A stretch of DNA of 64,000 nucleotides from Candidatus Latescibacterota bacterium (GCA_965219995.1 CBDCOX010000002.1:3104001-3168000), one strand, 5' to 3'; counted from the stretch's first letter, positions 13,231-56,894 are shown. The notes: a model not told the origin generated them from the letters alone. Numbers and translations are program-made.

Positions 13231-13543
13231 AAAAAGCGGTGAGACGTGAAAGGGAGAATTAAGAATGAAAACCTGAAAGCGGTGAGGGGGTAGACGGGAG
13301 ACGGTAGATGACGTGCTTGCACAATTGGTTCTTCTCCTATGCCTCTGGCACAATATGAAACCGGACGAAGCAAGAAAACCCGTGAGACGGTAGACGGTAG
13401 ATGAAAGCAGTGAGACGGGAGCCGTTAGACGGTAGATGACATCTTTGCCCGATTGGTTTTTCCTTTAGGCCTGCGGCAAGAGATGATACCAAACAAGCAC
13501 TGACATCATCTCACGTCTCACCTCTACCGTCTCCCCGCCTTTC
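13231..13543. repeat. Heptamer-armed modular repeat cluster (two B modules, reversed)
   Basis: gcggtgagacg.. / acggtagatgac-B-..cgtctccccgcct; fills the arc-dop intergenic space. Confidence 0.85.
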
Positions 13544-13544
13544 G

Positions 13545-15266
13545 CTATACAATCCGATTACCCCGCCGGTTCGGTTCCCGGCCGGGCCGAATCGGTGACG
13601 CCCGCACGACGTTTTCCGGATCGTAATCGAGCAGTTTCAGCCAGTCTTCCGTGTTGTCGGTGGGCGGGAAGATCTCGTTCTCGGTGTACTCGGTGTCGAC
13701 CGCCTGCAGCAGATCGTCCCCCGAGATGCCCTCTTCCTTTCCGGACGCGATGGACCGCCGGATGGCCATCTCCTTTGCGCGCCTCACGATCGACTCCATA
13801 ATCGCCCCGCTGGCCAGGTCCCCGCGCCGAAGGGTGTCCTTCCTGCCGCTTCGGAGGGTCACCTCGAGAAACCGCGTATGGTCTCGCTTCGAAAAGATCT
13901 CTTCCGCCGTGCGGGCGACGAGCGACTCCACGGCCGCGACGGAATCGCCGCCGTGCTGCTCCAGCGCCTTCCGGTCGATCGGCAGATCGGGCGTCAGGTA
14001 GATCTTGAGGATATCGAGCGCGCCATACCGGTCCGGGCGTTTCACCTTGATTTTCCGGTCGATTCGGCCCGGCCGCAGAATGGCGGGATCGATCAGGTCC
14101 GGGCGGTTGGACGCCAGAATGATCACCACGTCCTGGAGCGACTCGATGCCGTCCATTTCGGAACAGAACATCGGCACCACGGTATTCGAAATGCTGTGCG
14201 ACCGCATGGCCCGGCGCGTACCGAGAACGGATTCCGCCTCGTCGATGAACACCACCGGCAGATAACCCTCTTTCCGCTTCTCCCGCGCCCGGGAGAAAAT
14301 CTCGCGAATCTGGCGTTCGGACTCGCCCAGCCACATATTGAGGATTTCCGGCCCTTTGACGTTCATGAAACATTCCTTCAGGTTCAGACCGGCCTCCTGC
14401 TGTGCCTGCTTGACGAGGTTGTGCGCGGTTGCCTTGCCGATCAGCGTCTTGCCGCAGCCCGGCGGGCCGTACAACAGGAACCCCTTGGGGACGCTGTATC
14501 GGAACCTGGAAAACAGGTCCGGATGCAACGTGGGCATCTCGATCGTATCTTTAATGGCCTGGATGGCCTCTTCCTGGCCTCCGATCTTCTCCCAGGGCAG
14601 ATCGGGGATTTCTTCGAGGTAATAGTCTCTGGCTTCCTTTCCGGGCATGCGTTCCAGCGCCACCCGGAGGTTCGGGTCCACGCGGACCTCATCGCCCGCC
14701 TTCAGGGACGCCGCCGCCAGGTCGCTGGAGCGGGAAAGCACCGTCACCTGGCCGCCCGGTTCCTGGCCGACCCGCAGCCGGCCGTCTTCCAGCACGTCGG
14801 ATATCTTCACCACCTGGCCCGAGGATGAATAGCCCAGTTCGCCTACGATGGCGAACGCGTCGTTTACGAGTACCCTCGCGCCCACCTTCAGCGCCTCCTG
14901 GTCCAGCCGGGAATCGACGTTGGCGTAATATTCCGATCCGCCCACGCTGATGTAGGCCACGCCGTCGCGGGGGCCCTCGAGGAGCGTGCCCACGCGGTTC
15001 GCCGGCGCCGTCACCTTCTCGAGCGCGGCCTCCATCTCCACGATGGTCCGCCTCGCCTCCTCGAACGTGATTTCGTCTTCCTGAAGCTGTCTGCGGAGGT
15101 GGTAGAGCAGGGGACGCCGTTTGTCCTTTTCGTCCATCGACATCAATATCTGGTCGATGATGGACAGCGAGCGGAACGTGTGCTGCATATCCACGTAGTC
15201 CTGCAGAAAGTCGTCCGGCGACTTTCGCTGTCGATTTCCTTCGTCGGGGCGGTTAATGGCGCTCAC
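13545..15266 (-). CDS. arc: Proteasome-associated AAA ATPase (ARC/Mpa-like)
   Basis: Coiled coil and OB-like region; LLYGPPGCGKT, NVKGPEILN, VFIDEAES, SNRPDLIDPAILRPGRID. Confidence 0.9.
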   Translation of the reverse strand: MSAINRPDEGNRQRKSPDDFLQDYVDMQHTFRSLSIIDQILMSMDEKDKRRPLLYHLRRQLQEDEITFEEARRTIVEMEAALEKVTAPANRVGTLLEGPRDGVAYISVGGSEYYANVDSRLDQEALKVGARVLVNDAFAIVGELGYSSSGQVVKISDVLEDGRLRVGQEPGGQVTVLSRSSDLAAASLKAGDEVRVDPNLRVALERMPGKEARDYYLEEIPDLPWEKIGGQEEAIQAIKDTIEMPTLHPDLFSRFRYSVPKGFLLYGPPGCGKTLIGKATAHNLVKQAQQEAGLNLKECFMNVKGPEILNMWLGESERQIREIFSRAREKRKEGYLPVVFIDEAESVLGTRRAMRSHSISNTVVPMFCSEMDGIESLQDVVIILASNRPDLIDPAILRPGRIDRKIKVKRPDRYGALDILKIYLTPDLPIDRKALEQHGGDSVAAVESLVARTAEEIFSKRDHTRFLEVTLRSGRKDTLRRGDLASGAIMESIVRRAKEMAIRRSIASGKEEGISGDDLLQAVDTEYTENEIFPPTDNTEDWLKLLDYDPENVVRASPIRPGREPNRRGNRIV

Positions 15267-15304
15267 CTCCGGAATCGAAAAGGAAAAAGGAAGAATGAAG
15301 ACCT

Positions 15305-15466
15305 GAAACCGGTGAGACGGTAGACGTAAGACGGGAGATGATGTGAATGCTCTATGGTTTTTCTTGATTGCTACGATAACGGTAAATTAGCGGGCACGGT
15401 TTGTGTAGAAACACTGCTGTAAAAGTCTTCATCTACCGTCTACCGTCTCCCGTCTCCCCGCCTTTA
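15305..15466. repeat. Heptamer-armed repeat with module A
   Basis: ccggtgagacggtagacgtaagacgggagatg-A-catctaccgtctaccgtctcccgtctccccgccttta. Confidence 0.85.
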
Positions 15467-16366
15467 GTCGTCCATCTCCCGCTTGAAGGTGAACTTCATC
15501 TTGGCGCCGGGGTTCTCCACCTTGACGTTCCCCCGGATCACGGTGACGTCCATCTCTTTGAACGACAGCTTGATTTCATGTCCGATTACGATTCCGCGGC
15601 CCACGTCGACGGTCCATTTCCCCTTTCCCTCGCCCGTGCCCTCGACCATAATGGACACCGCGTTTGAAAATATCCAGCCGCGATACCGCATCTGCCGGGT
15701 CTCGTCGATGAGGGCGACCCGGCGGCCCTTCTTCTTCGCCAGTCGCTTCAATACGTAAACGCTGTTGATCTCCACCGTGCCTTTGTCCTGAAGCGCGGGG
15801 ATGGGAATCTCGTGGCGGCGCAGGCCGTTCCACGAATCTCCGGAACCGACGTCCCGCTTGGGCAGAACCGGATGTATTTCCGGCACCCAGAGCTGATGCA
15901 GATCGCTGATTGCCGCCTCCCGGCGCACTTCGTAAGACTTGAAACCGGGCTTGAACCCGATCACGTCGCCCGCCGCAGTCACGTTCCACGTAAATGTCCG
16001 GTTGTTGAACATATCGAGCAGGTACGGGAAGTTGTTCTCGCTGATCTGAACGCGGTCTTCCATGACCGTGCTCTCGGCGTTCTGAACCGTTGCCGTCACG
16101 GTTGCGGCTTCCGCCGAGATTGCAGTGACGGCTTCTCTGCTCTTCCATTTTCCGTAGGTCCGGACGTCGACGGTGCCGGACGTCTTGTCCTCGTCGATCA
16201 GGTCCGCGCGACCGCTGTAATACTCCAGCGTCCAGGAATTCTTATACAGATTCGACTGCCCCGACTTGTAGACGAACTTGAGTGCCACCTTCTCGGCAAA
16301 CGCGGATCCTCCGGGAAAGAACAGAACAGTCGAAATGAACATGCAAAGAAGACGATTCCGGCCCAT
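15464..16366 (-). CDS. Secreted hypothetical beta-rich protein
   Basis: Signal peptide ending SAFA; GGAGG RBS; GC-typical codon usage. Confidence 0.7.
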   Translation of the reverse strand: MGRNRLLCMFISTVLFFPGGSAFAEKVALKFVYKSGQSNLYKNSWTLEYYSGRADLIDEDKTSGTVDVRTYGKWKSREAVTAISAEAATVTATVQNAESTVMEDRVQISENNFPYLLDMFNNRTFTWNVTAAGDVIGFKPGFKSYEVRREAAISDLHQLWVPEIHPVLPKRDVGSGDSWNGLRRHEIPIPALQDKGTVEINSVYVLKRLAKKKGRRVALIDETRQMRYRGWIFSNAVSIMVEGTGEGKGKWTVDVGRGIVIGHEIKLSFKEMDVTVIRGNVKVENPGAKMKFTFKREMDD

Positions 16367-16753
16367 GGCTCCCTCCTGCTTCGATGGACGGTAATTAAAG
16401 GGGGACTCTGCCTACGTCAGCTGAATTGGAAGAGTTTCCGACGCAAATCGGAATCGTTAGCACCGCGAAGAATTGCGGGATCCCGATACAAAAAAAAGCC
16501 TGTGATGTGAAAAGTAACATCGAAGTACCGTGAAGTCAAGTTGAGCACAGATGCCGGTGTGACATCCGGAAGGTCCCCCGAGGTGCGCTGGAGGATGTTG
16601 ACGTCCGGGCGGCCCCGTGAAGTGAAGTTTCTCTTCACTTCGGGAAAAGGGCTTGACATGGCCGCCCGTATGGACAATGTTTACCCATATACGGTCGGCA
16701 GGAAGGTTCCTTCTTCTTCGGCATAGCGCATCATCGAGACGGGGCGCCAACAA

Positions 16754-19372
16754 ATGAGACGACTCTCAGGTTCGCTGTTCCTGTTGCTGACATTCGTTCA
16801 CCCTCTTTCCGCGCAGAGGATCGGCGAGCCGCAACCGGTCCACCTCATCGGGACGTCGACCCCTTTGACCCTCGAGTTTTCCGACCGGGACTATCTGATG
16901 ATCCTCTATTCACTGTATTCGGACGTTCCGCCCGATCTCAAGGAGAGTCCGGAGTACGGATTCTCTGTTTTCAGCCCCTCGAACGGCGCCGGTTCCACGG
17001 GCATTCCCGGTCCCGTCGCGAGGGTTTCGCCGCTGTCGATCGGCGGTCTGGAAGCGCAGCTTCGAAGACAGGAGCAGGAGCTCGCCCGCCGCGTACGGGA
17101 AACCGGCGGATACCGCCCCCCGGCGACGAAAGTCGCGCCTCAACAGGTCAGCGCCCGCCAGTTCGCGTTTCCGGCATTCGGCAACGTGCCCGATACGACC
17201 GTTACGGCGGTGCTCGTCGCGGGCAGCTTCAGGGCGAACGCGTACGTGGACGTGGCCGACACCGGCCGCGTCAGCAGGCAGCGGATCCAGGGGGACGCCG
17301 ACCTGTTCACCTTGAGGATCCATCCCGTTCTCACGTCCACGCTCGCACGGGATCCGCGTGCGGCGGACATCGGGAAGGTTATCCTGCTCTACACCCACCT
17401 GGTTGACGAAGTCGGTGACGACACCACCATGGTACGCGGGTTCTTCAACGCCGCGTCGGTCCTGCCTCCCAGCCAGGGCGGTAACGGCGACCAGCTCAAC
17501 CTGCTGTTTATCAATCCATTCAACGAACCGGAGGTCGCCGAAGCCGTGCTCGCCCACGAATTCCAACACCTCTTCAGCTTCCACCAGCACGTACTCATTC
17601 GCAACGGCCGGCCGGAAGAAGCCTGGCTCAACGAAGGGCTGTCGCACGTGTGTGAAGACCTGGTCGGCGGACACGAAGTGCACAATCGACAGATTGTCGA
17701 ACGCTTCCTCGCCGACCCGAGCCGTACGCCGTTGCGCGGGTCGGTCGAAATCCCGGGCGTCCGCGGCGCCGCCTATCTGTTTGTGCGGAGTCTCATTGAA
17801 GACTCCGGCATGGAAATCCTCACGCGCCTGGTCCAGACGAGCCATATCGGACTCCGCAACGTCAGAGAAGCCGCCGGCGACCCCATCACCGACATATACC
17901 TGAGATTTCTGTCGCGGCTGTACTTCACCGGCTCGAGGCTGAACCCCACGCTCGAATACACCGCGCCGCCTCTGGTGGACGCCACAACCGGCGCGCGCCG
18001 CTTCCCCTTTCCGGAAGAAACCCTCGTATCGTCCGGGACCCCCCCGGCGATCGGGAGCGTGCAGCCCCTTTCCGCGGCCTATATGCGGCTGTCGTACGGT
18101 GAAGACCGGTTGATATGGATCCAGACCGACGCGGAGGGCTTGCCCGGCGTGGTCCTTGTCCCGATTCTACCCGCCGACCAGGACCGAATCTCGATTCCGA
18201 CCGATTTCTTTACGGGCATCACGCTGGACGCGCCCATCGCCGGACCCCATCTGTCCTACACGCCGATTCCGATTTCCGGCGCCGTGTCCGACACGCTCAT
18301 CGCCGAACTCGAGTTCGTCCTCCTGTTATCGGATTACAGCACGGAAAACCGGTACGTCGTCCCGGTCCGGGACGAGAAATTCACACATACGTTCTTCTTC
18401 TCGCACGAACAGGCGGGCGACTACCGGCTGGAGGCGAGAACGAGACGGGCAGAACGGCAGGACAGCGAGACGGCGGGCACGTTCGGCGCCTTCACAGTCG
18501 AGGAAGGGCCGGAGACCGCGCCGATTCCCGTCGGTTACTTTACGGACATCGTCTTTTCCTCGCCGATTCCCGTCGAAGCGCGATCCGGACAGGCGATCCG
18601 ACTTTCCGGCACGGTATCCGATTCGTCCCTGACCGCGATCAAATTCAGTTTCTGGCACGAGGATATCGACAAATCGCTGCACTTCAATGCGCCGGTGACG
18701 AACGATCAATTCAGGAAAACCGTCTTCTTCACGCACGGACAAACCGGCGTTTACCAGTTTGCGATCAACCGGCAGCGGGAAAATACGAGCTATGCGCTTC
18801 CACAGGATGCCTTCAGCCCCTTTGTCGTCGTTGAGGGAGACGGGGCGGCCCTCATCCCCGTGGATTTCTTCGATGAAATCAGACTTCAGGCGCCCATGCC
18901 GATTGAATACCGGATCGGCCGGTCGGTGAGCGTCGAGGGCGCGGTATCCGATCCTTCCGCGTCCCAGATCGAGTTCGAATTCTACACGTCAGGCGGGGAC
19001 ACGCAGACTGAATCCGGCACGACCGACACCCGTTTCTTCGCGCAGGTGGTCGACGGCCGGTTCAGCATCGACATCGTCTTTTCACCCGAACAGCGGGTCT
19101 CGGACGACTATACGCTCGACGTATGGCTGTGGCGGAGCGGCGAACGTTCCAGGGGCTACCGAAGATTCGCACCGATTTCAATCATCGAGGCGCTGCCATC
19201 TCCCGACTTCAATGGCGACGGAACGGTGGGATTCGCGGATTTCATCGCGTTTGCGGAGGGGTTCGGCAAGACGGCGGCCGACGCGGACTTCGATCCCAGG
19301 TTTGACCTGGATGGGGACGCGACCGTTGGATTCGGGGATTTTGTGATCTTCTCGAGTGCCTTTGGACAGTAG
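16754..19372 (+). CDS. Secreted zinc metallopeptidase (M30-like) with repeated Ig-like modules and a C-terminal dockerin-like/EF-hand domain
   Basis: Signal peptide; LAHEFQH...WLNEGLS; three IPxxFF-started repeats; DFNGDGTVGFADF...DLDGDATVGFGDF. Confidence 0.75.
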   Translation: MRRLSGSLFLLLTFVHPLSAQRIGEPQPVHLIGTSTPLTLEFSDRDYLMILYSLYSDVPPDLKESPEYGFSVFSPSNGAGSTGIPGPVARVSPLSIGGLEAQLRRQEQELARRVRETGGYRPPATKVAPQQVSARQFAFPAFGNVPDTTVTAVLVAGSFRANAYVDVADTGRVSRQRIQGDADLFTLRIHPVLTSTLARDPRAADIGKVILLYTHLVDEVGDDTTMVRGFFNAASVLPPSQGGNGDQLNLLFINPFNEPEVAEAVLAHEFQHLFSFHQHVLIRNGRPEEAWLNEGLSHVCEDLVGGHEVHNRQIVERFLADPSRTPLRGSVEIPGVRGAAYLFVRSLIEDSGMEILTRLVQTSHIGLRNVREAAGDPITDIYLRFLSRLYFTGSRLNPTLEYTAPPLVDATTGARRFPFPEETLVSSGTPPAIGSVQPLSAAYMRLSYGEDRLIWIQTDAEGLPGVVLVPILPADQDRISIPTDFFTGITLDAPIAGPHLSYTPIPISGAVSDTLIAELEFVLLLSDYSTENRYVVPVRDEKFTHTFFFSHEQAGDYRLEARTRRAERQDSETAGTFGAFTVEEGPETAPIPVGYFTDIVFSSPIPVEARSGQAIRLSGTVSDSSLTAIKFSFWHEDIDKSLHFNAPVTNDQFRKTVFFTHGQTGVYQFAINRQRENTSYALPQDAFSPFVVVEGDGAALIPVDFFDEIRLQAPMPIEYRIGRSVSVEGAVSDPSASQIEFEFYTSGGDTQTESGTTDTRFFAQVVDGRFSIDIVFSPEQRVSDDYTLDVWLWRSGERSRGYRRFAPISIIEALPSPDFNGDGTVGFADFIAFAEGFGKTAADADFDPRFDLDGDATVGFGDFVIFSSAFGQ

Positions 19373-19375
19373 ACC

Positions 19376-19670
19376 AAGAGCGGGGAGACGTGAGACGGAA
19401 GACGGTAGATGACGTCATTGCCCGATTGGTTCTTACTCAATGCCTCTGGCAAGATGTGAAACCACGCGGGACAATAAAAAAACCGGTGAGAGGGTAGACG
19501 TGAGACGGTAGATGACGTCTTTGCCCGTTTGGTTTTTCCTTTATGCCTGCGGCAAAAAGTGAAACCGGACGCGGCGGACAATCTCTCCCGTCTTACCTCT
19601 AACGTCTCCCCGCCTTTGGGGCGCTCATGTCATCTCCCGTCTCACGTCTCCCGTCTCACCAGGGGTAGGG
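19376..19670. repeat. Heptamer-armed repeat cluster (two B modules, reversed)
   Basis: Lies between convergent genes and supplies the amidohydrolase stop codon. Confidence 0.85.
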
Positions 19671-24155: not shown

Positions 24156-24354
24156 GGTTGCCGCCCTTTCTCCGGAGACGGTTTTCGTGCGTGACACTGG
24201 AATCAGCAACGCGGGACCTCACGTGGTCCGCACAGGTTCCTTGCCAGCTCAGGAGCCGCAACCGAAGCAACCGACGCCGGCTAACGCGTCCTCCTCTTGC
24301 CAATGACTCTATACAAAATATCCATCGCATTGCATTTCGTCAAGCCTGAACGGT

Positions 24355-24600
24355 CGAAGAAGGAAGAATTAAGAATTAAGAATGAAAACCCGAAGGCGGT
24401 GAGACGTGAGACGGTAGTTAAAGGCGGTGAGACGGGAGAGGGTAGACGGTAGACGATGACGTTACCACAGTGTTTTCACGGTAACCGTGCCTGTTTCTTT
24501 GCTGATATGGTAACAAAGAGAAAAACCGTCGGGCACTCATATCATCTCCCGTCTAACGTCTTACGTCTCACCCGGGGTAGGGGCCGGGGGTGGTTGGGAG
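24355..24600. repeat. GAATTAA repeats plus heptamer-armed repeat with module A (reversed)
   Basis: agaattaagaattaagaatg; ggcggtgagacg..; catctcccgtctaacgtcttacgtctcacc. Confidence 0.8.
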
Positions 24601-24618
24601 GGAGCTTCTGCAGCGAAC

Positions 24619-24653
24619 AAAAAACCGCCGGACGCGGGGTCCGGCGGATTTTT
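24619..24653 (-). terminator. Intrinsic terminator of the surface-protein operon
   Basis: AAAAAA-CCGCCGGAC-gcggg-GTCCGGCGG-ATTTTT. Confidence 0.8.
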
Positions 24654-24673
24654 CGTTCCATATGCGACTGCGA

Positions 24674-26152
24674 TTACTTGAGCAGCAGCATCTTCTGGGA
24701 CAGCGTGGACGTTCCGGCGTCGACCTTGGCGATGTAGACACCGCTCGCAACGCCGCGTCCCTGGTTGTCCCTGGCGTCCCACTGGATCGAGTAGCGACCC
24801 GCGGAGGTGACCTGGGAAACCAGATGCCGCACCTGCTGGCCCAGCACGTCGTAGATCACGACGGTAACCGGCCCCGCTTCGGGCAGGTCGTAGGAAATCG
24901 TGGTGCTCGGGTTGAAGGGGTTCGGATACACGTTGACCGCAAACTCCGTGGGCAACGGCATCCGGGCGCCCAGCAGCACCTCGATCACGTTCGACTGCGC
25001 GATCGAGCCGTCCAGGTCCACCTGCTCGAGCCGGTAGTACACCTTGTCCACGCCCGGCAGGTCCTTGTCTTCAAAGCTGTAATTCATCAGGGCGTCCGAG
25101 GTTCCCGCGCCCTGCACGAAGTTGCCGACCGCCTCGAAATTTTCGCCGTCCACGCTGCGGGTGATCCGCCAGCCCGCGTTGTTCGTCTGCGAGACCGTGG
25201 ACCAGTTCAAAACCACGCGGTCCGTCTGCAGCGCGCCGTCGAAGGAGGCCAGTTCGGCCGGGTTCAACTGCGTGAAGGTAAACGTTGCCGGCGCCGTATC
25301 GTCGCCGTTCACGGTGGCTTTCACGGTCACCTGCAGGCTTCCGCCCGTGACTTTCAGGACGATCTTGTCGGCCGAGACCATCATATGGTCATCGAGCTCC
25401 AACATCATCCCGTCCACGTCCAGAACGCTCAAGGAGCCGTCGCCCGTTGTGGTGACGGTGTAGGAAATGGTCGCATCGTCCGGGAGGTTGTCCAGCCCGA
25501 CGGTCACGGATGCGCTGCCGCCCATGGCGGGAATCTGAACCATATTCCCGGCCATCAGATCATCGCCCATGCCCATGATGGTAGGGCCCTTGGGCGCCTC
25601 TACCGTTATGATGGCTTCGGACACGTCCAGGCTGTCCTGCTCAAAGCTCGCCGTGCCGATGATGGCGTGCTTGGCGTAGAAGGACGCGCCGTCCGCGATA
25701 TCGGCCTTGGCCATGATCTTCACGGTGGCAAAGTAGCCATTGTCCCCGATTGTGACAGGCGTAAGCCCGCCCAGCGTGAACGAGTCGTCCTGAATGCCGC
25801 CCGCGCCGAGTACGGAAACGATGCCGTCGACACCGATGACCTGCCAAGAGTCGTCGAACATCATGTCCATATTGCTGTCGGAGAATTTGACGGTGCCGCC
25901 AATGATGGCGTTGCCGCCGCCTTCTTCAATAAACAGTTCCACTTTGATCGTGTCGCCCGCCATGGACATCGAAGGCGCGATGGTATTCACGCCCTCGTTG
26001 ACCTTGTCGTCGTTGTCTTCAACCATATTGAACACGGTATCGACCAGCAGCTTCTTGTCCTTCAGGGCGCCCGCATCGACGCCACCGACGATGACGGCCA
26101 CAAGAAAAGCGGCAACCGTAACAAAGCCCAAAATCGGTTTAACTCTATACAT
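24674..26152 (-). CDS. Secreted acidic protein with a cohesin-like domain and a FlgD-Ig/T9SS-like C-terminal domain
   Basis: Signal peptide from MYRVKP with an AAGGAG RBS; GDTIKVELFI...GGTVKF; ends YPNPFNP...SGVYIAKV...KMLLLK. Confidence 0.75.
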   Translation of the reverse strand: MYRVKPILGFVTVAAFLVAVIVGGVDAGALKDKKLLVDTVFNMVEDNDDKVNEGVNTIAPSMSMAGDTIKVELFIEEGGGNAIIGGTVKFSDSNMDMMFDDSWQVIGVDGIVSVLGAGGIQDDSFTLGGLTPVTIGDNGYFATVKIMAKADIADGASFYAKHAIIGTASFEQDSLDVSEAIITVEAPKGPTIMGMGDDLMAGNMVQIPAMGGSASVTVGLDNLPDDATISYTVTTTGDGSLSVLDVDGMMLELDDHMMVSADKIVLKVTGGSLQVTVKATVNGDDTAPATFTFTQLNPAELASFDGALQTDRVVLNWSTVSQTNNAGWRITRSVDGENFEAVGNFVQGAGTSDALMNYSFEDKDLPGVDKVYYRLEQVDLDGSIAQSNVIEVLLGARMPLPTEFAVNVYPNPFNPSTTISYDLPEAGPVTVVIYDVLGQQVRHLVSQVTSAGRYSIQWDARDNQGRGVASGVYIAKVDAGTSTLSQKMLLLK

Positions 26153-26226
26153 CTCGCCTCTCCTTCTCGGTGTGTGGTGTGTTTCGCTCCAGAATTCCAT
26201 GCTCGCTCCAGTAACGAAAACTTAAA

Positions 26227-26254
26227 TATGGGAGGCTCCCGGAGGAACCTCCCA
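26227..26254. terminator. Intergenic stem-loop (attenuating or stabilising)
   Basis: TATGGGAGG...CCTCCCATA just after the stop of the large surface-protein gene. Confidence 0.5.
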
Positions 26255-26267
26255 TACGCTTCCTGCA

Positions 26268-37634: not shown

Positions 37635-38630
37635 AGATATCAGCTATCAGCGGTCGGCGTTCAGCAAGAATCAAGGTCGAAAATCAAATTCAAAATCCCC
37701 TTTTCCCCAAATTCCCTAAAGGCGGGGAGACGGGAGAAGTGAGACGGGAGATGATATCAGTGCCTTGTGGTATTTCTTGTTGTTACGATAACGGTAGAGA
37801 AACAGGCACGGTTAGCGCGAAAACACTGTGGTGACGTTATCATCTACCGTCTACCCTCTTGCCGCATTTGCCAGGGCGTGGGGCCTGCCAAATGCATAGC
37901 GCGAACACACTCACAGGATGCACACGATCCTCTGGCCTTACACCCGCGGAGGAAGATCAAACCACGTTGCTGGACGGATCAGCGCGCTCTGCTCTGGTAG
38001 CTCTCCGGTCAGGAAATACGTTTGTAGACCGATTGGTGTCTGGATGATGAGGACAGCGGTTAGCCATCGGCTGACAGTTGACAGCTTGGAGCGAAGAGCG
38101 AACCACTCCCAGCCCCGCAGACCTCTCCCCCCGGCCCATCAAAAGCGGTGAGAGGGTAGACGTGAGACGGGAGAAGATAATCTGCGTCGATGGGACGACG
38201 ATAAGGCCAGGCGACATGACCTCGCGGATGCGCAGACCTATCCCCCTGCCTGCCGAAAAATCACCGGCAGGCAGGACCCTTTCCTAAAGGAAAGGGTATG
38301 GAGGTTCGCGTAATGGGATCCCGGGTTCCCCCTTCCTTCAGGAAGGGGGTCAGGGGGTAGGTCTCGTAAAGGCGGGGAGACGGGAGACGTAAGAGGGGAG
38401 AGATTGTTCGCCCCGTGCGGTTTCACTTCTTGCCGGCGGCATAAGGGAAAAACCAATCGGGCAAGTACGTCATCTACCGTCTACCGTCTTACGTCTCACC
38501 GATTTTATTGCCCCGTGCGGGTTCACTTTTTGCCGGAGGCATAATGGAAGACCCATTCGGGCTAGGACGTCATCTACCGTCTACCGTCTCACGTCTCACC
38601 GCTTTCCTCTACCGTCTCACCGCTTTTTGG
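37635..38630. repeat. Composite repeat region (module A, 184-bp element, two B modules)
   Basis: 37874-38057 matches 32851-33034 without indels. Confidence 0.8.
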
Positions 38631-39109: not shown

Positions 39110-39660
39110 GTAAAAGGCGGGGAGACGTAAGACGGGAGACGTGAGATGATGTCACCGCGACGGCCGGATTTCGATACGGACCGGCGGAATCTATCCGCGA
39201 TACGGGCGGGACCGCTCCACCCGGCCCACTACCCCGGGTGAGACGTAAGACGGGAGATGATGACCCTTCGCCCATCGGGTATCGATACGGACTCGCGATA
39301 TCTACCTCTGATGTCGAAGGCCCTACCCCCAGCCCCCAACCCCGGGGAGACGTTAGACGGGAGACGGGAGATGATATGAGTGCCCTAAAGGCGGGGAGAC
39401 GTTAGACGTGAGAAGGGAGAGATTGTCTGCCCGTTGCGGTTTCATTTCTAGCCGGAGGCATTAAGCGAGAATCAATCGGGCAAGGATTTCCTCTACCGTC
39501 TACCCTCTCACGTCTCACCGCTTTTTTCTACCGTCTTGCGTCTTACGTCTAACGGGTTTTATTGCCCCGTGTGGTTTCACATCTTGCCAGGGGCATTAAG
39601 GTAGAATCAATTTGGCAAGGATGTCATCTACCGTCTAACGTCTACCCTCTCCCCGCTTTT
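39110..39660. repeat. Heptamer-armed repeat cluster (C, C, empty, B, B) between rpsR and rplI
   Basis: Repeated gagacg arms; modules match copies elsewhere in the window. Confidence 0.85.
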
Positions 39661-39883
39661 ATGACATACTATCCGTTGCAAAAGGCAACAGCGCGATCTG
39701 GCGGGCGCGCTTGAGGTGCCGGGTGACGTTGCGCTGGTGCCTGGCGCAGGTCCCGGAAACGCGCCGGGGGATGATCTTTCCCCTGTCCGTGACGAACCGC
39801 TGCATCAGCCGCACGTCCTTATAGTCGATGGTCAACGCCTTGTCTTCGCAGAACCTGCATACCTTTATGCTGGACCGGTTCAT
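39659..39883 (-). CDS. rpsR: 30S ribosomal protein S18 (Zn-binding form)
   Basis: CRFC...IDYKD...[17 protein letters not shown]. Confidence 0.97.
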
Positions 39884-40281
39884 TCGCCCTCCTCCTTGTC
39901 GTCGCCTTCCTCGGCGTTCTCTTCCTCGTCTTCTCCGCCTGCATCCGCTTCCGCCTCGTCCTCATCGTCCGCTTCCGGTTCTTCCTCCACCGGACTTTCG
40001 TCCACGACGACCAGGTGCCGCAGCACGGACTCGTCCAGCTTGAACATCCGGTCCACCTCGGGCAGGACCTCCGGCGGCGCCTCGAAGCGGATGAACGTGT
40101 AGTCTCCGCGCTGCTGCTTGCCAATGTCGTAGGCCAGCTTGCGCGCGCCCCAGCGGTCGACCTCCACCGAGCGGCCGCCGCCTTCGGAAACGAGGCGATC
40201 GAAACGCGCGACGAGGTCGTCCACCGCGTTATCGGGCGCCTGGGTGTTGACGATGAGTGCGAGTTCGTAACGATTCGGCAT
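39880..40281 (-). CDS. rpsF: 30S ribosomal protein S6 with an acidic tail
   Basis: [26 protein letters not shown]; GGAGG RBS. Confidence 0.95.
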
Positions 40282-40283
40282 GG

Positions 40284-40350
40284 AACCTCCCCGTGGACTG
40301 TTGGCCCGCGAGCCGCCCGACCGGGCGTTCACGAGCGGGGCGATAAGGAA
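40284..40350 (-). promoter_or_regulatory. Candidate rpsF (S6:S18) ribosomal leader hairpin
   Basis: CCCCG...CGGGGAGG stem overlapping the RBS directly upstream of rpsF. Confidence 0.35.
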
Positions 40351-40361
40351 AACTGCAATCG

Positions 40362-40845
40362 GTTAAAGGCGGTGAGACGTAAGACGTAAGACGGGAGATG
40401 ATGACCCTTCGACGATCGGATTTCGATACGGACTGACGATGTCTTCCTGCGATGCCGAAGAACCTCTCCCCGCGGCCCCCTACCCCCGGGTGAGACGGGA
40501 GACGTGAGACGGGAGATGATATCAGTGCCCTATAGTTTTTCTTGTCGTTACGATTACGGCAAATAAACAGGCACGGTTTATACGGAAACACTGCTGTAAA
40601 TGTCTTCATCTACCGTCTACCGTCTCGCGTCTAACGGGTTTTCTTGCCACGTGCGGCTTCATTTTGTGCCGAAGGCACAATGGAAGACCCAATCGGGCAA
40701 AGACGTCATCTACCGTCTACCGTCTTGCGTCTAACGGGTCTTCTTGCCGCGTGCGGCTTCATTTTGTGCCGAAGGCACAATTGAAGAACCAATCGGGCAA
40801 GGATGTCTTCTACCGTCTACCGTCTACCGTCTTGCGTCTAACGGC
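40362..40845. repeat. Heptamer-armed repeat cluster (C, A, B, B; the B copies form a 100-bp tandem)
   Basis: 40636-40710 and 40736-40810 are near-identical. Confidence 0.85.
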
Positions 40846-42914: not shown

Positions 42915-43243
42915 AAAAGGCGGTGAGACGGGAGACGGGAGACGGGAGATGATCACCCTTCGCCCATCGGATATCGATACGGACTCGCGATATCTACCTG
43001 CGATACCGAAGGAACCCTAAAAAGCGGTGAAACGGGAGATACCGTGAGCGCCCTAAAGGCGGTGAGACGGGAGACGTGAGACGTGAGATGATATCAGTGC
43101 CCCAAAGGCGGGGAGACGTTAGAGGTAAGACGGGAGATGATATGAGTGCCCGTGCGGATTCATATCTTGCCAGAGGCATTTAGCTAGAACCAATCGGGCA
43201 CGGACGTCATCTACCGTCTCCCCTCTCCCGTCTCCCCGCCTTT
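42915..43243. repeat. Heptamer-armed repeat cluster (C, empty arms, B)
   Basis: Fills the pth-hppA intergenic space. Confidence 0.85.
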
Positions 43244-43808: not shown

Positions 43809-44062
43809 CTAAAAACGGTGAGACGGGAGACGGGAGATGATTACCCTTCGTCCATCGGATATCGATACGGACTCGCGATATCTACCTCTGATGTCGAAGG
43901 CCCTACCCCCAACCCCGGGGAGACGGGAGACGTGAGACGGGAGATGATGTGAATGCTCTATGGTTTTTCTAGTCGCTATGATAACGGTAAATTAGTAGGC
44001 ACGGTTTTTGTGGAAACACTGCTGTAAATGTCTTCATCTACCGTCTACTTACGTCTCACCTC
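43809..44062. repeat. Heptamer-armed repeat cluster (C, A), left flank of the four-helix-bundle gene
   Basis: The C module and following arm are nearly identical to 44520-44640. Confidence 0.85.
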
Positions 44063-44094: not shown

Positions 44095-44454
44095 CTAAGA
44101 TGATACTCTGCTTATCAATCCTGACAGCAAACCAAACAATCGATTCATTGTTTTTATTATTGATTGAACGTCATCTTCCGAACACATTTGGAGGCTTAGT
44201 GCAATTTCAAGCTGAGTATCCAACTCAACCAACGAACTCCTGGCGATTTCCAGAAATCTTTTGCGTTCAGAACTCGAAGATCTCGCCGACCCTTCGGCAA
44301 TGTTGGACGGTATTGAGACAGCAGATCGTCGTAACTGGCCGGTTAGGCCATAAAGTTCGGCGGAGGGGAATTCAGCGGTCAGCGTATAAATCTCGTTGAC
44401 CAGATCAATGCTCTTTTTCCATACCACAAGCTTCTTGTGGCTGAGTTCCATCAT
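44095..44454 (-). CDS. Four-helix-bundle protein (23S rRNA IVP / Avd-like family)
   Basis: HKKLVVWKKSIDL..IY, FP..E.YGLTGQLRRSAVSIPSNIAEG, FLEIARSSLVELDTQL; visibly lower GC than its neighbours. Confidence 0.92.
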   Translation of the reverse strand: MMELSHKKLVVWKKSIDLVNEIYTLTAEFPSAELYGLTGQLRRSAVSIPSNIAEGSARSSSSERKRFLEIARSSLVELDTQLEIALSLQMCSEDDVQSIIKTMNRLFGLLSGLISRVSS

Positions 44455-44479
44455 CGCGTGCAAGCGCTATCGTTCCTCC

Positions 44480-44905
44480 CCGCAGCCCCCAACCCCGGGG
44501 AGACGGTAGACGTAAGACGGGAGATGATTACCCTTCGCCCATCGGATATCGATACGGACTCGCGATATCTACCTCTGATGTCGAAGGCCCTACCCCCAAC
44601 CCCGGGGAGACGGGAGACGTGAGACGGGAGATGATGTGAGTGCCTGAAGAGCGGGTAGACGTTAGACGGGAGACGGGAGATACCGTGAGTGCCCTATGGT
44701 TTTTCTTGATTGCTACGATAACGGTAAATTAGCAGGCACGGTTTGTGTAGAAACACTGCTGTAAATGTCTTCATCTACCGTCTACCCTCTTACGTCTCAC
44801 CGGTTCTATTGCCCCGTGTGGTTTCACATCTTGCCAGAGGCATTGAGTAAGAACCAATGGGGCAAGGATGTTATCTACCGTCTACCCTCTCACGTCTCAC
44901 CGCTC
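44480..44905. repeat. Heptamer-armed repeat cluster (C, empty, A, B), right flank of the four-helix-bundle gene
   Basis: Ends next to the rplY TAA. Confidence 0.85.
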
Positions 44906-45592
44906 TTATTCTTCGTCGTCCTCGTCTTCGTCCTTCTTGCCGCGTTCGATGACTTCGGGTTCCTGCATCTCTTCTTCTTCCTCGAGCACCTCTTCCTCTT
45001 CCTCTTCGACCTGAGCGATTGAAGGCGGAACCACGACAAACACGGACCGGTCGCTCTCGGTAACGATCTCCACGTCGCCGGACACGCTCAGATCGGAGAC
45101 GTGCACCGAGTCTCCGATATTCAGATGGTTCACGTCGAACCCGATGCTTTCCGGGATCTCGGCGGGCAGACACGACACCTCCACCTGGTGCAGCAACTGC
45201 TCCAGAATACCGCCTTCCGTGCGGACGCCGGCGGGAATGCCCTGGGGTTCGACGCGAACGTCCACGACGATTTTCTGGGTGAGCGAGATCCGGTAGAAGT
45301 CCGCGTGGAGGAGATGACCGCCAACGGGGTGGTGCTGCAGCTCCTTGACGATGGCGGTGTCTTCGGATTGATCCTCGCCGTTGCCCACAACCAGGGACAG
45401 AAGCGTATTCCGGCCGTGTTCGTGCAAGACCGTTGACAACGCCTTCGCATCGACCGAACAGGCGACGGACGCGCCGCGGTCGCCATAGACCACCGCGGGA
45501 ATCCTCCCGGTACGCCGGATGCGCTTGGCCTCGCCCTTTCCGGTTCCGGAGCGTACTTCGGCCTGCAAACTTACGCCGTTATTGTCAGCCAT
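44906..45592 (-). CDS. rplY: 50S ribosomal protein L25/Ctc
   Basis: GKGEAKRIRRTGRIPAVVYG, HADF, GGILEQ, LNIGDSVHVSDL; acidic tail; GGAGG RBS. Confidence 0.95.
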   Translation of the reverse strand: MADNNGVSLQAEVRSGTGKGEAKRIRRTGRIPAVVYGDRGASVACSVDAKALSTVLHEHGRNTLLSLVVGNGEDQSEDTAIVKELQHHPVGGHLLHADFYRISLTQKIVVDVRVEPQGIPAGVRTEGGILEQLLHQVEVSCLPAEIPESIGFDVNHLNIGDSVHVSDLSVSGDVEIVTESDRSVFVVVPPSIAQVEEEEEEVLEEEEEMQEPEVIERGKKDEDEDDEE

Positions 45593-45635
45593 TGACCGAT
45601 CCTCCACATTTTTTTACCAGAACTGCGGTTTTGCA

Positions 45636-45706
45636 CTGCCGGGCAGGGATTCGAACCCCGATAAACGGCTCCAAAGGCCGCTGTCTTACCCTTAGACGAC
45701 CCGGCA
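45636..45706 (-). tRNA. tRNA-Gln(TTG)
   Basis: Minus strand TGCCGGG...CCCGGCAG acceptor stem, anticodon loop CTTTGGA, GGTTCGAATCC T-arm; CCA not encoded. Confidence 0.93.
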
Positions 45707-45845
45707 TCAATAACCGGAACCCGGATGCTGCGTGCGATCAGTCCGCGAGCCATCGTTGAGGCGGCAATCGACCGGGGTCGTACGTTGTTATGACTATATA
45801 TTAATGTATAAGGAACCGCAAACGGCTCGATCCGATTCCGGACGG

Positions 45846-46718
45846 CTACGGTTCGCGCGGCCGGAACCGACACAGATAGACCCGGCGCCCGCGGCCCTGC
45901 ACCAGGCCAACCACGGCCGAAGCTTGCGAGGCCTCACGAAAAACGCCGAAGAGCGTGGATCCGCTGCCCGAAACCGAACAGGCAACCGCGCCCCGGGCGT
46001 CCAGCGCCGCAAGGATCCGCGCCACGTCGCCGGCGGCGGCTTCCACGAGGGGCAGAAAGTCGTTTTCCAGGCAGGCGAACAATCGGCCGGCGCAGATCCG
46101 GCCGGATTTTTCCGCAAAGTCCAGAAATGTACCATACGCTGCTGAATCTGTCAAGCCAATTCTCACGTTTCGATAGGCCCATGCGGTGGACACGGGGAAC
46201 CCCGGATACACCAGTACATACCAGAAATCGCCCTCCCAATCCACCGGTCGGATCCGCTCTCCGCGCCCCGTTACCACGGCCGTGCCGCCGGTGAGGAAGA
46301 ACGGGACGTCGGACCCGAGTTCCGCGGCGAGCGAGGCCAATCGCTCCGGCCCCAGACACGTTCCCCACAGCCGGTCCAGCGCGCGCAGCGCCGTGGCCGC
46401 GTTGGAACTCCCGCCGCCCAGGCCCGCGCCCGCGGGAATGTGTTTGACCAGGTCCACGCGCACCCCGTTGCGTGCGCCCGTTGCCCGGCGGAGGATTTCA
46501 ACGGCGCGGTACACGAGGTTCTCCGGCCCCGCGGGAACGTCCGGACGGTCGGCGCGGACCAGGGTTTCTCCGGGCGCGGCGGGCGTGAACACCAGCCGGT
46601 CGCACAGGTCCACCGTCTGAAGCACGGAGACGATATCGTGAAAGCCGTCCGGGCGGCGGCGCAGGATCTTCAGGCCCAGATTCAGCTTCGCGGGCGAAAT
46701 TTCAACAACGCGATCCAT
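45846..46718 (-). CDS. ispE: 4-diphosphocytidyl-2-C-methyl-D-erythritol kinase
   Basis: PAKLNLGL, KHIPAGAGLGGGSSNAA, LGSDVPFF, SGSGST. Confidence 0.96.
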   Translation of the reverse strand: MDRVVEISPAKLNLGLKILRRRPDGFHDIVSVLQTVDLCDRLVFTPAAPGETLVRADRPDVPAGPENLVYRAVEILRRATGARNGVRVDLVKHIPAGAGLGGGSSNAATALRALDRLWGTCLGPERLASLAAELGSDVPFFLTGGTAVVTGRGERIRPVDWEGDFWYVLVYPGFPVSTAWAYRNVRIGLTDSAAYGTFLDFAEKSGRICAGRLFACLENDFLPLVEAAAGDVARILAALDARGAVACSVSGSGSTLFGVFREASQASAVVGLVQGRGRRVYLCRFRPREP

Positions 46719-46728
46719 TGGGAAAACC

Positions 46729-47172
46729 CTTAAAGGCGGTGAGACGGTAGACGGGAGACGGGAGATGATGACCCTTCGCCGATCGGATGTGTCGATACGG
46801 ACTGACGATATTTTCCGGCGATAGCGAAGGACCTCTCCGCCCGGCCCCCCTCCCCTGGTGAGACGTAAGACGGGAGACGTGAGATATTGTGAGTGCCCTA
46901 AAGGCGGGTAGACGTAAGACGTGAGACGGGAGATGATATGAATGCCTGTTCGGTATCATCTCTTGCCGCAGGCAGAAAGGAAGAACCAATCGGGCAAGGA
47001 CGTCTTCTACCGTCTTGCGTCTCACGTCTCACCGCTTTCATCTACCGTCTACCGTCTTGCGTCTAACGGGTTTTATTGCCCCATGTGGTTTCACATCTTG
47101 CCAGAGGCATTGAGTAAGAACCAATGGGGCAAGGACGTCATCTACCGTCTACCCTCTTACGTCTCACCGGTT
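46729..47172. repeat. Heptamer-armed repeat cluster (C, empty, B, B)
   Basis: Lies between the ispE start and its predicted promoter. Confidence 0.85.
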
Positions 47173-51219: not shown

Positions 51220-52767
<1,548 letters not shown>

Positions 52768-53463
52768 ACAAGCGGGGAGACGTTAGACGGGAGACGGGAG
52801 ATGATCACCCTTCGCCCATCGGATATCGATACGGACTGGCGATATCTACCTGCGATACCGAAGGCCCCTCCCCGCACCCCTCGCCCCCGCAAACCTCTCC
52901 CCCCGGCCCCTCAACCCCGGGGTAGACGTAAGACGTGAGACGGGAGATACCGTGAGTGCCCTATGGTTTTTCTTGATTGCTACGATAACGGTAAAATAGC
53001 AGGCACGGTTTGTGTAGAAACACTGCTGTAAATGTCTTCATCTACCGTCTACCCTCTTACGTCTCACCGGTCTTATTGCCCGCTGTGGTTTCACTTCTTG
53101 CCGGAGGCACAAGGGTAGAACCAATTGGGCAAGGATGTCTTCTACCGTCTACCCTCTCCCGTCTCCCCGAATTTACGCAGACCTCTCCCCCCGGCCCCTC
53201 AACCCCGGGGTAGACGTAAGACGTGAGACGGGAGATACCGTGAGTGCCCTATGGTTTTTCTTGATTGCTACGATAACGGTAAAATAGCAGGCACGGTTTG
53301 TGTAGAAACACTGCTGTAAATGTCTTCATCTACCGTCTACCCTCTTACGTCTCACCGGTTTTATTGCCCGCTGTGGTTTCACTTCTTGCCGGAGGCACAA
53401 AGGTAGAACCAATCGGGCAAAGATGTCATCTGCCGTCTCACGTCTACCGTCTTACCGCTTTTT
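52768..53463. repeat. Heptamer-armed repeat cluster (C plus a 288-bp tandem duplication of A+B)
   Basis: The units starting at 52894 and 53182 are identical for about 175 nt. Confidence 0.9.
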
Positions 53464-55034: not shown

Positions 55035-55078
55035 GCGCCCCGCCGCGGTCCATGCCGCCAGGCGATACTCGCGAACGT

Positions 55079-55114
55079 CAAGAAGCCCGGCAGGAACGCC
55101 TGCCGGGCTTCTTT
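55079..55114 (+). terminator. Intrinsic terminator
   Basis: AAGAAGCCCGGCAGG-aacg-CCTGCCGGGCTTCTTT. Confidence 0.8.
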
Positions 55115-55124
55115 GTGAGCGATC

Positions 55125-55320
55125 AGTTAAATGCGGTGAGCGGGTAGACGTGAGACGGGAGATGATGTGATCGCCCTGTGCGGGTTCAAATCTTGCCGGA
55201 GGCATTAAGCGAGAATCAATCAGGCAAAAATGTCATCTACCGTCTTCCGTCTCACGTCTTCCCGCTTTTACGCGACCTCTCCCCCCGACCCCCTCTCCCG
55301 GGGGGAGAGGGGGAGCAAGA
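55125..55320. repeat. Heptamer-armed repeat with module B plus a CCCCTCTCCC/GGGAGAGGGG hairpin
   Basis: Matches the other copies. Confidence 0.8.
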
Positions 55321-55541
55321 CCAGGCGTAAATCAGACGTTATTGATTTCATCTCGGCCCTGACTCTCCAATACCCTTGTCCAGAGAAACCAAATCGATGA
55401 CACCGCCAGACGAATAATCCAAAAACAACCCTTGTAATTAAGGGTAGAAGCAAGGTATATTATATCGTCAGAAGATCCATTGTTGCTCTGAAGACCGATC
55501 GCCAATTACGTTTCGACAACTCTCAGCGAGGGATTCCACCA

Positions 55542-56219
55542 GTGAACCACAGTGATCCCAAATACAGAACGCTGGCTACATATCAGGTGGCTGAAGCTGC
55601 GCGCTTTCTCAGGATAAATCCGGGAACGCTCAGAGTTTGGCTTAAGGCCGAACATCTGCTGAGACCGCCTGCGGCACAGCGGACTCAGCTCTCTTTCCTG
55701 AATCTTGTTGAGGCCCACGTTCTGTCAGCGCTTCGGGGTGAATTCGGCCTCTCGATGCAGCGCATTCGGATCGCTCTGGACGAATTGCGACATCAATGGC
55801 CGGAGGTTGAGTACCCGCTGGCTACCGAGGAATTCTTCACCGATGGAAAGTATCTGCTGATCGAGAAACTCGGTCAACTGTTCAACCTGAACCGGGGTAG
55901 CCAGATTGAGGTGGGTGAACTTATCGAGGCTTACTTGAATCGCGTCGACCGGGATGAAATTGGCCCTGTGCGCCTTCATCCCTTCACTGTAGACCCGCGG
56001 CTGAACCGGCAACGGGCCAACAGACGTCACGTTTTCATCAGCCCATACGTTTCGTTCGGACGCCCGTCAATCACTGGCATTGGTGTGGCCACCGAGGTAG
56101 TTTACGACAGATTCATTGGTGGAGACACCATCAGCCAAATGTGTAAGGACTATCGTCTCACACCCGTTCAGCTTGAGGAAGTCCTAAGGTATGAGTCCGC
56201 GATCAGCCGGGCCGCCTGA
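55542..56219 (+). CDS. DUF433-containing antitoxin (VapB45-like, N-terminal HTH)
   Basis: YQVAEAARFL...TLRVW, LSFLNLVEAHV, SFGRPSI.G.GV.TE, LEEVLRYE. Confidence 0.85.
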   Translation: MNHSDPKYRTLATYQVAEAARFLRINPGTLRVWLKAEHLLRPPAAQRTQLSFLNLVEAHVLSALRGEFGLSMQRIRIALDELRHQWPEVEYPLATEEFFTDGKYLLIEKLGQLFNLNRGSQIEVGELIEAYLNRVDRDEIGPVRLHPFTVDPRLNRQRANRRHVFISPYVSFGRPSITGIGVATEVVYDRFIGGDTISQMCKDYRLTPVQLEEVLRYESAISRAA

Positions 56220-56322
56220 TTCTCCTTTGCACATATTTGTTGACCGTAACCTGTCCAGCGGGATATTAATACGAGAATTGCGCGAGGCCCGGATCACGAA
56301 AGACCTGGGCCTCGAAAGTTGA
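56191..56322 (+). pseudogene. Truncated PIN-domain toxin (VapC45-like N-terminus)
   Basis: Overlapping ORF MSPRSAGPPDSPLHIFVDRNLSSGILIRELREAR... stops after 43 aa. Confidence 0.6.
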
Positions 56323-56334
56323 GGAAACGGTGTG

Positions 56335-56894
56335 ATGGTGGGGCAGACATTCCTGTCTGCCCCTTTTTTGTACTTCCGCAGGAATGCAGACTGGGACGGT
56401 CGCTTCGACCTCTCCCCCCGACCCCCCTCCTCTGGTGAGACGTAAGACGGGAGACGTGAGAGATTGTCTGCCCGGTGCGGTTACATTTTTTGCCGGAGGC
56501 ATAAAGCGAGAATCAATCGGGCATGGACGTCATCTACCGTCTACCGTCTAACTTCTCACCGGTTTTACGCAGACCTCTCCCCCCGACCCCCTCTCCTGTG
56601 AGGAGAGGGGGAGCAAAAGGCAGCTATCGGCAATAAGCTGTCAGCATGGAGCAAACGCGTACCCATTGACGTCTGCGCCGTGATGAGGCAGGACCCTTTC
56701 CTGAAGGAAAGGGGGGTCAGAGGCGGGTAGACGTTAGACGGGAGAGATTGTCCGCCGCGTCCGGTTTCACTTCTTGCCGCAGGCATAAAGGAAGAACCAA
56801 TCGGGCAAAGGTGTCCTCTACCGTCTACCGTCTTGCGTCTCACCGCTCTCAGGTTCTTCCCTCCTCCTTCTTCCCTTTCCCGTCTTCCCGCCTT
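56335..56894. repeat. Repeat cluster: GGGCAGACATTCCTGTCTGCCC hairpin, two B modules, CCCCTCTCC and CCCTTTCC hairpins
   Basis: Direct comparison with the other copies; ends on the TAA of the next gene. Confidence 0.8.

Follow-up and report, generated by a model that had tools for sequence, protein, structure and literature searches.

Several classes of bacterial repeat invite comparison with the DNA considered here. The intervening sequences (IVS) in the 23S rRNA of Coxiella and Leptospira carry a PF05635 (23S_rRNA_IVP, or S23p) gene within an insert bordered by complementary, stem-forming sequences, and are described in one account as selfish and sporadically distributed, with a protein of unknown function (PMC4990558). 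Neisserial intergenic mosaic elements (NIME) alternate a short conserved repeat, dRS3, with flanking RS family members of 50-150 bp, in arrays that vary between relatives (PMC1797815). Intergenic tandem 7-mers, described as simple repeats, are known as short tandemly repeated repetitive (STRR) sequences in cyanobacteria. The GGGAATC repeats of Xanthomonas are of the same sort, and 70-75 convergent pairs of them on opposite strands have been reported (PMC4692102); that account, which contains neither 'intervening' nor 'S23', treats them as simple repeats and draws no link to a gene. Repetitive extragenic palindromic (REP) sequences, bacterial interspersed mosaic elements (BIME) and hairpin-forming REP doublets (REPIN) are clustered extragenic hairpins with a mosaic grammar, and miniature inverted-repeat transposable elements (MITE), which arise from insertion sequences by internal deletion, are short non-coding copies that keep both ends of a gene-bearing parent, several families having the same ends. 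The BOX element of Streptococcus pneumoniae (boxA-boxBn-boxC) has a modular order, a repeatable middle unit, a capacity to fold and no known mover; to our knowledge, it has no associated gene. Here we describe a family of heptamer-armed mosaic repeats, and the S23p gene among them, in 64,000 nucleotides of a Candidatus Latescibacterota bacterium (GCA_965219995.1, CBDCOX010000002.1:3104001-3168000), the stretch we call the window.

We consider it rather probable that these repeats are genus-specific selfish non-coding inserts that descend from, and still lie beside, an IVS-like S23p cassette. They are built of arms, each a run of 2-5 tandem NNAGA[C/T]G heptamers, a left arm (L) being matched by an inverted right arm (R), and of modules of three types, A, B and C. 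The window holds 58 runs of at least two such heptamers (34 on the plus strand, 24 on the minus strand), all within 15 intergenic clusters between 13.2 and 56.9 kb, and AAAGGCGG occurs in it 21 times against 3.08 expected and a maximum of 8 over 100 shuffles. The genome that holds the window (G000; 5.43 Mb, closed, 98.6% complete; G001-G014 are other species of the same genus) has 520 arm runs, of two (221), three (144), four (152) or five units (3), and its densest 100-kb bin, with 70 runs, is the one containing the window. Searches by nhmmer with models seeded from the window copies returned 8 A, 19 B and 8 C in the window and 71, 183 and 23 in G000. An earlier note on this stretch had described the heptamer arms and given exactly these window counts, and had observed that modules mostly keep the order C-A-B; every detail that we checked was borne out, and the order is kept in 69 of the 71 multi-module clusters of G000, 70 of which are co-oriented. 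Module A stands invariably between inverted arms, C invariably between direct arms and B between either. A and B have identical first 12 nt after the left arm, ATRTSAKTGCCC, and both ends in common; an AB composite occurs in 20 clusters and ABB in 8.

That note passed over a gene. It had stated, correctly, that no transposase is adjacent to the clusters, and had found no named element to which they could be matched; among them, at 44095-44463 (-), is a PF05635 gene (E 1.5e-36, 125.2 bits against a cut-off of 33.8; match 44122-44436(-)), placed between pth and rplY (L25) on the same strand as both, with the A module of cluster 10 a short way past its stop codon. The only solved structure matching its product is PDB 2gsc_A (E 9.8e-30, five chains), a Xanthomonas campestris protein described as a ring-shaped homopentamer (PMC4990558), and the S23p family has been related to Avd of diversity-generating retroelements (PMC10053308). 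In the cassette we propose, this is the gene for a small, Avd-like four-helix-bundle protein. The ratio of nonsynonymous to synonymous differences (pN/pS) is 0.12-0.27 among six pairs, and 0.21-0.27 between the window gene and its orthologues; judged by these ratios, the gene is under purifying selection.

Genes of this family and short tandem arrays go together throughout the genus. PF05635 has 31 matches, in 13 of 15 genomes, and all 26 whose flanks we examined adjoin such arrays, 25 by a strict period-7 count, the one remaining array being purine-rich. By type, the arrays are AGACG (8 genes), GCTGA (5), GGTCAGT (1), AATTC (4), purine-rich (6) or of a longer unit (2). A strict period-7 array lies within 350 nt of all three PF05635 genes of G000, as compared with 2.85% of 20,000 random segments. 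When the six array types are placed on the protein tree they require five changes, which is the minimum, against a mean of 15.7 after shuffling and none of 200 shuffles as low; the AGACG clade has support of 100/99. At one orthologous locus G003 and G013 carry the AGACG type and G004 and G010 the GCTGA type, so that gene and arms travel together.

Module A is homologous to the flank of the gene. The A model matches immediately 3' of the gene end in G008, G003 and G013 (E 3.9e-8, 4.7e-8 and 8.5e-8; 3 of the 8 AGACG-type loci), and left arm plus A aligns over its full length with the reverse complement of AGACG-type gene tails from four other species, with a mean column identity of 78%. A B-like hairpin is located 180-400 nt upstream of the gene at four of the eight loci. 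In G006, outer inverted AGACG arms close a 723-nt fold around the B-like hairpin, leader, gene and tail, and these arms are paired in both the minimum free energy and the centroid structure (z -2.7, 20 shuffles). Read in element orientation, the cassette runs left arm, A, gene, B, right arm, the same order and orientation as the gene-less composites of G000. What had been called interchangeable cargo is better read as parts of one parent cassette, A as its left end or tail and B as the hairpin near its right end, with deletions and duplications besides. As in a MITE family, a small non-coding derivative keeps both ends of a longer parent (A is the 3' flank of the S23p cassette, and G006 has the two-armed parent). 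As in rRNA IVS, a PF05635 gene lies within the insert, in the window itself, and stem-forming complementary sequences border it, in G006 and, by eye, at nine of ten loci in other phyla.

A complete cassette would consist of a left AGACG arm, a tail of ~90 nt and the S23p gene antisense to the arm, followed by the leader of that gene, a B-type hairpin and a right arm with its heptamers inverted. Without the gene it would become an L-A-R or an L-A-R-B-R element, in which A is the tail, and L-B-R elements would retain the hairpin end only; under such a derivation the C-A-B order copies the part order of the parent. Arrays would then expand by duplication or by unequal exchange between arms. In cluster 13 a 288-bp unit (L, A, R, B, R, connector) stands twice in tandem at 52922-53454, which shows that arrays do grow by duplication. 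They may have been enlarged further by insertions that fall within the first 12 nt of resident elements, and such insertion, together with exchange between arms, would leave all left arms at one end of an array and all right arms at the opposite end. That is the arrangement in 134 of 167 multi-arm clusters, 25 others having one kind of arm only and 8 more than one switch; none of the 167 is divergent (R+L+). The connector, which separates a right arm from the left arm that follows (53166-53209 and 56555-56600 in the window; CCGAATTTACGCAGACCTCTCCCCCCGGCCCC...), is related to the GGCCGGGGGGAGAGGTCTGCG repeat that fills spacers in sister species. Seven longer A-like variants (Table 1) open with a left arm and resemble A at first, then continue with 150-280 nt common to them, with no right arm nearby; they may be decayed cassettes, and a tblastn search with S23p proteins found nothing in them at E 0.01.

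Comparisons between and within genomes point to mobility. At the window site 15290-15480, five species have a 67-nt spacer, G000 has A, two species have B and five have other repeats; further orthologous sites likewise vary in content. Among 62 A copies, 17 have a counterpart that is at least 98% identical and more than 5 kb away, as do 19 of 180 B and 4 of 22 C. Composites have been copied as units, one A-R-B having a copy 1.5 Mb away with 95% identity over 249 nt.

Several observations weigh against descent from an S23p cassette. Agreement between arm type and protein clade may be plain co-inheritance. G010 has 51 strict AGACG arms and no AGACG type among its PF05635 genes (two of three matches examined); G001 has A and B modules, and its sole PF05635 match is of the purine type; G000 has 33 GCTGA arrays without any GCTGA-type gene. 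Arms kept in these three genomes without a matching gene indicate that the cognate gene is not needed for their persistence. The A model falls short of E 0.01 at four of the eight AGACG-type loci, B is nearly palindromic, so that its strand in distant species is ambiguous, and C is absent from the cassettes of other species searched. In G000 the gene is flanked by one right and one left arm, outside any single inverted pair, and the arms of the G008 cassette are direct. We saw no clean target-site duplication, either in the flanks of near-identical copies or between filled and empty sites, and no exact empty site; at orthologous sites the spacer is replaced rather than simply interrupted. Searches of G000 found no enzyme for movement, contigs from RNA libraries show neither transcription nor processing of the repeats, and the agreement of arm type with protein clade breaks down across phyla, where one protein flanked by GAAGACG arrays has 32% identity with the window protein as compared with 38-39% with other types. 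Finally, S23p itself is credited with no known activity or function in the published account cited above (PMC4990558).

Some of these observations are what one would expect if the repeats were ordinary MITEs of a lost, unrecognised or external transposase, DDE or other, with the S23p gene a passenger caught between arms. The elements are abundant in G010 and G001 without an AGACG-type gene, the ends common to A and B recall MITE families served by one enzyme, and S23p has no reported function (PMC4990558). The search for a transposase-bearing parent was unproductive. We know of no catalytic motif in S23p, which again suits a passenger. The five L...R pairs of G000 that are 250-6000 nt apart enclose no whole gene, so that this genome lacks any long AGACG-armed element. 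Two insertion sequence (IS) families were considered as parents, IS630-like (4 intact copies) and IS4-like (5-6 copies), and rejected, their inverted ends being unrelated to the arms. TnpB/OrfB, IS110, rve and reverse transcriptase (RVT_1) each had 0 matches in G000, as did Y1/RAYT (the REP-associated tyrosine transposase, PF01797), for which a control search matched 6 of 14 genomes. The arm pattern has 0 matches in viral contigs, and PF05635 is the sole gene found with such arms, in the genus and in five genomes of other phyla. We regard the MITE explanation as unlikely. A Uma2 nuclease beside cluster 4 was rejected as a partner, its copy numbers failing to track arm counts (4 copies in G004 and 3 in G008, with 0 strict arms), and the small contig C1 (9.6 kb), considered as a plasmid or phage carrier, is without arms; an exact 29-mer had 0 matches in genome contigs. 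The repeats accordingly remain unmatched to any MITE or REP family with a known transposase, as the earlier note had left them, no terminal inverted repeats being held in common with an autonomous transposase element.

The same note called the family REP- or REPIN-like, which holds in that inverted extragenic doublets folding as hairpins are present and fails in that a 98.6%-complete genome has no Y1/RAYT transposase. One could still regard the repeats as host-selected elements of the REP, BIME or NIME type, serving as binding sites, mRNA stabilisers or terminators, or recombination substrates. Their layout does recall NIME arrays, with short repeats flanking 50-150-bp families (PMC1797815), one B (the second of cluster 1) has been kept at its orthologous site in G002 and G014 as well as G000, and similarity between near-identical copies often stops inside the arms, as exchange between arms would give. 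Placement in G000 speaks otherwise. Genomic contexts (98 tandem, 37 convergent, 36 divergent) do not depart from background (2051, 679, 679); orientation is independent of gene strand, as had been observed in the window (46 same and 60 opposite for B, 20 and 22 for A, 3 and 10 for C); and there is no replichore bias of the kind that would signal single-strand transposition (A p 0.61, B p 0.06). Many species have empty sites, covariation is lacking, and modules A and B are found in 6 and 5 of 53 genomes of the order, all within one subclade of the genus. Host selection seems to us improbable. Crude ORF calls, which cover 90% of the genome, include 24-35% of module bases. On the C2 chromosome the elements are concentrated at ~2.3-5.1 Mb, around the minimum of cumulative GC skew (~3.9 Mb), and are scarce near its maximum (~0.9 Mb).

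The family is, as first described, a dispersed intergenic one with inverted arms and its own grammar. Its A and B elements fold stably as a long hairpin on either strand (z -4.8 to -6.6); C with direct arms folds poorly (z +0.7 and +1.5). The innermost linker is polar, GG on the left and GT on the right, and the polarity seen in the window holds genome-wide: for A, 42 of 61 left arms have GG and 57 of 61 right arms have GT; for B, 34 of 87 and 68 of 88 do. Linkers of the two arms of one element match at 0.349, against 0.393 +/- 0.012 for random pairings; since they match no better than random, the stem has the periodic mismatches that had been predicted for paired arms, and these are uncompensated. 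Stable folding could indicate that the modules are structured non-coding RNA genes, which we judge very improbable. Both strands fold alike, and 183 copies of B follow no orientation rule. In an analysis that used the fold of the consensus, permutations give B a paired fraction of 0.840 against 0.842 observed, A and C show the same behaviour, and double changes are below slid controls for all three modules. RNAalifold returned no structure for 176 B copies, and Rfam gave no match at the gathering score or up to E 1. The suggestion that the family acts as folded RNA thus finds no support as a matter of selection.

Transcript folding may matter in a different way. By analogy with rRNA IVS, the inserts would be tolerated in operons because the arms fold each of them into a long mismatched transcript stem that RNase III cuts, and the arms could also be what the movement machinery, or S23p, recognises. 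G000 has one RNase III gene. Three metatranscriptome runs contain small shares of this organism, with contigs that carry repeat copies and mostly end at clusters. The 23S rRNA gene of G000 (G000:C2:450013-453721; L160 1487-5195) is 3709 nt long as compared with a 2925-position model, ~780 nt extra, and the gene has no period-7 arrays by scan and no PF05635 match.

Heptamer periodicity by itself might arise from polymerase slippage, the arms being microsatellite by-products, or from misassembly. Heptameric repeats are over-represented among bacterial simple repeats, for which one account proposes slippage (PMC4692102), and the strict arm pattern also matches many unrelated genomes of many phyla, most of these matches being perfect AGACGNN microsatellites. 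Period 7 stands out in G000: a 5-mer recurs three times at 7-nt spacing at 335 loci, against 87 at 6 nt, 20 at 8, 143 at 9, 18 at 10 and 19 at 11, and the cores of the 335 are AGACG at 227 and GCTGA at 33. In the arms, however, the 5-mer is fixed as linkers differ between neighbouring units and with position, left and right, which is not near-perfect iteration of one 7-mer, and the arms stand in inverted pairs around conserved cargo. Contigs from an independent DNA run (X5) pass from unique genes into arm plus C, one covering 39622-40513 with 6 differences (reaching cluster 8) and another 44881-46880 with 26 (reaching cluster 12). Of the 14 other species of the genus, 11 carry the arm pattern, and it occurs weakly in 5 of 16 species from one genus of the sister family, with 0 matches for a reversed control pattern in all genus and sister-family genomes scanned. 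The artefact that would have undone the earlier description is thereby excluded, and slippage or misassembly is the least credible of the explanations we considered. G000 has other heptamer families as well, 33 GCTGA arrays, purine-rich arrays and GAATTAA-type arrays, which are the kinds that flank other PF05635 subfamilies.

Table 1. Heptamer-armed clusters and related features. Window coordinates unless a contig is given; cluster rows combine the arm-run scan with nhmmer module matches. L, left arm; R, right arm.
Feature	Position	Strand	Content
Cluster 1	13231..13545	-	two B (13311-13382, 13439-13504, minus); arms 13290-13310, 13383-13403, 13425-13438, 13507-13542
Cluster 2	15313..15466	+	solitary: L 15313-15340, A 15342-15429, R 15430-15466; hairpin z -4.8
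Cluster 3	19384..19660	-	two B (19412-19479, 19515-19583, minus) with arms
Cluster 4	24396..24572	-	A, minus, 24458-24541 between arms 24400-24455 and 24543-24570
Cluster 5	37718..37860	+	L, A 37755-37836, R
Cluster 6	38140..38605	+	arm 38156-38169, unrelated repeat, L 38368-38389, B 38402-38470, R, B 38500-38570, R
Cluster 7	39113..39650	+	L, C 39149-39236, L, C 39260-39345, L + 12-nt stub, L, B 39422-39487, R, R, B 39553-39624, R
Cluster 8 (full grammar)	40365..40845	+	L, C 40401-40486, L, A 40520-40606, R, B 40635-40706, R, B 40735-40806, R
Cluster 9	42916..43243	+	L, C 42952-43025, two arm-plus-stub units, L, B 43139-43207, R
Cluster 10	43819..44060	+	L, C 43840-43917, L 43919-43946, A 43948-44033, R 44035-44060
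PF05635 (23S_rRNA_IVP / S23p) gene	44095..44463	-	122 aa from TTG, or 119 aa from ATG 44455 as in relatives
Cluster 11	44480..44907	+	CCGCAGCCCCCAACCCCGGGG junction, L 44499-44526, C 44527-44604, L, stub, L, A 44684-44771, R, B 44801-44871, R 44872-44907
Cluster 12	46732..47165	+	L, C 46768-46856, L, stub, L, B 46936-47003, R, R, B 47067-47138, R
Cluster 13	52776..53460	+	L, C 52804-52881, then 288-bp unit twice: L, A (52951-53038; 53239-53326), R, B (53068-53138; 53356-53426), R; connector 53166-53209
Cluster 14	55144..55270	+	solitary L, B 55164-55233, R; fold z -6.6 on +, -6.2 on -
Cluster 15	56436..56895	+	L, B 56463-56530, R, unrelated repeats, L, B 56746-56813, R, terminal CCGCCTTT 56888-56895
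Other heptamer arrays	15270-15310, 24340-24390, 13250-13270		adjoin AGACG arms; also in leader of proteasomal ATPase gene
Longer A-like variants	G000:C2:680445, 1816751, 2196111, 2334093, 3316752, 3436635, 5148181		seven copies

Among the other heptamer arrays of the window, that at 24340-24390 is purine-rich and lies directly upstream of cluster 4; at the site orthologous to cluster 3, G001 has a different repeat. Window 11698-15266 encodes a proteasomal AAA ATPase together with a Pup ligase. The genome's nearest relatives that bear a name are labelled Candidatus Latescibacterota, with some sister metagenome-assembled genomes labelled Gemmatimonadota. The window ORFs 33459-37307 (1282 aa), 16754-19372 (872 aa) and 24590-26275 (561 aa) have no Pfam match.

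The association of gene and arrays extends beyond the genus. Genomes of other phyla chosen for AGACG arrays contain PF05635 in 5 of 5 cases, as compared with 1 of 14 control genomes. At ten loci in other phyla, short tandem arrays stand by eye beside the PF05635 gene at all ten and are inverted at nine; a strict period-7 array is marked at seven of the ten, 8-mers at two and an irregular array at one. A Rubritalea genome has a GAAGACG array directly after the gene, its two arrays not being inverted. A universal match between protein clade and heptamer core was rejected, proteins with like cores being no closer to each other across phyla than to those with different cores, and the idea of one heptamer per pentamer subunit, suggested by arms of at most five units here, is weakened by arrays of up to 8-9 units next to PF05635 genes of other phyla. 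It is possible, if doubtful at present, that S23p cassettes with heptamer arms are a widespread transposase-free mobile class in which the pentamer reads the 7-mers of its own arms, in DNA or RNA, and drives or licenses their spread, heptanucleotide repeats and rRNA IVS being its footprints.

Returning to descent from an S23p cassette, we find these repeats best filed as S23p-bearing, IVS-like cassettes with gene-less derivatives, which behave like MITE or NIME mosaic repeats and fail as a REP-RAYT system. Unlike known rRNA IVS, which are inserted in helices of 23S or 16S rRNA, all copies here are intergenic between protein-coding genes, their stems are built of heptamers, and one genome holds ~280 gene-less copies. 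Unlike MITEs, the parent has no transposase gene, no target duplication was found in the flanks and sites compared, and neighbouring modules share single arms. NIMEs differ in having dRS3 (ATTCCCN8GGGAAT) in place of heptameric arms of 14-35 nt, and more than 100 cargo families as opposed to three main ones; the arms described here are also oriented, with one left-to-right switch per cluster. REP and REPIN elements differ by their RAYT, by a preference for gene 3' ends and by replichore bias, all of which are absent here, and BOX elements are of unrelated sequence, without heptamer arms. A search of the main texts of openly available papers turned up none that connects heptamer repeats with PF05635 or with intervening sequences. 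The finding joins three things usually described apart, namely S23p rRNA IVS, intergenic heptanucleotide repeats and MITE- or NIME-like mosaic repeats, and offers a concrete example of parent and offspring within one closed genome. One gene-bearing AGACG cassette and ~280 gene-less copies together provide defined DNA and RNA partners with which S23p can be tested.

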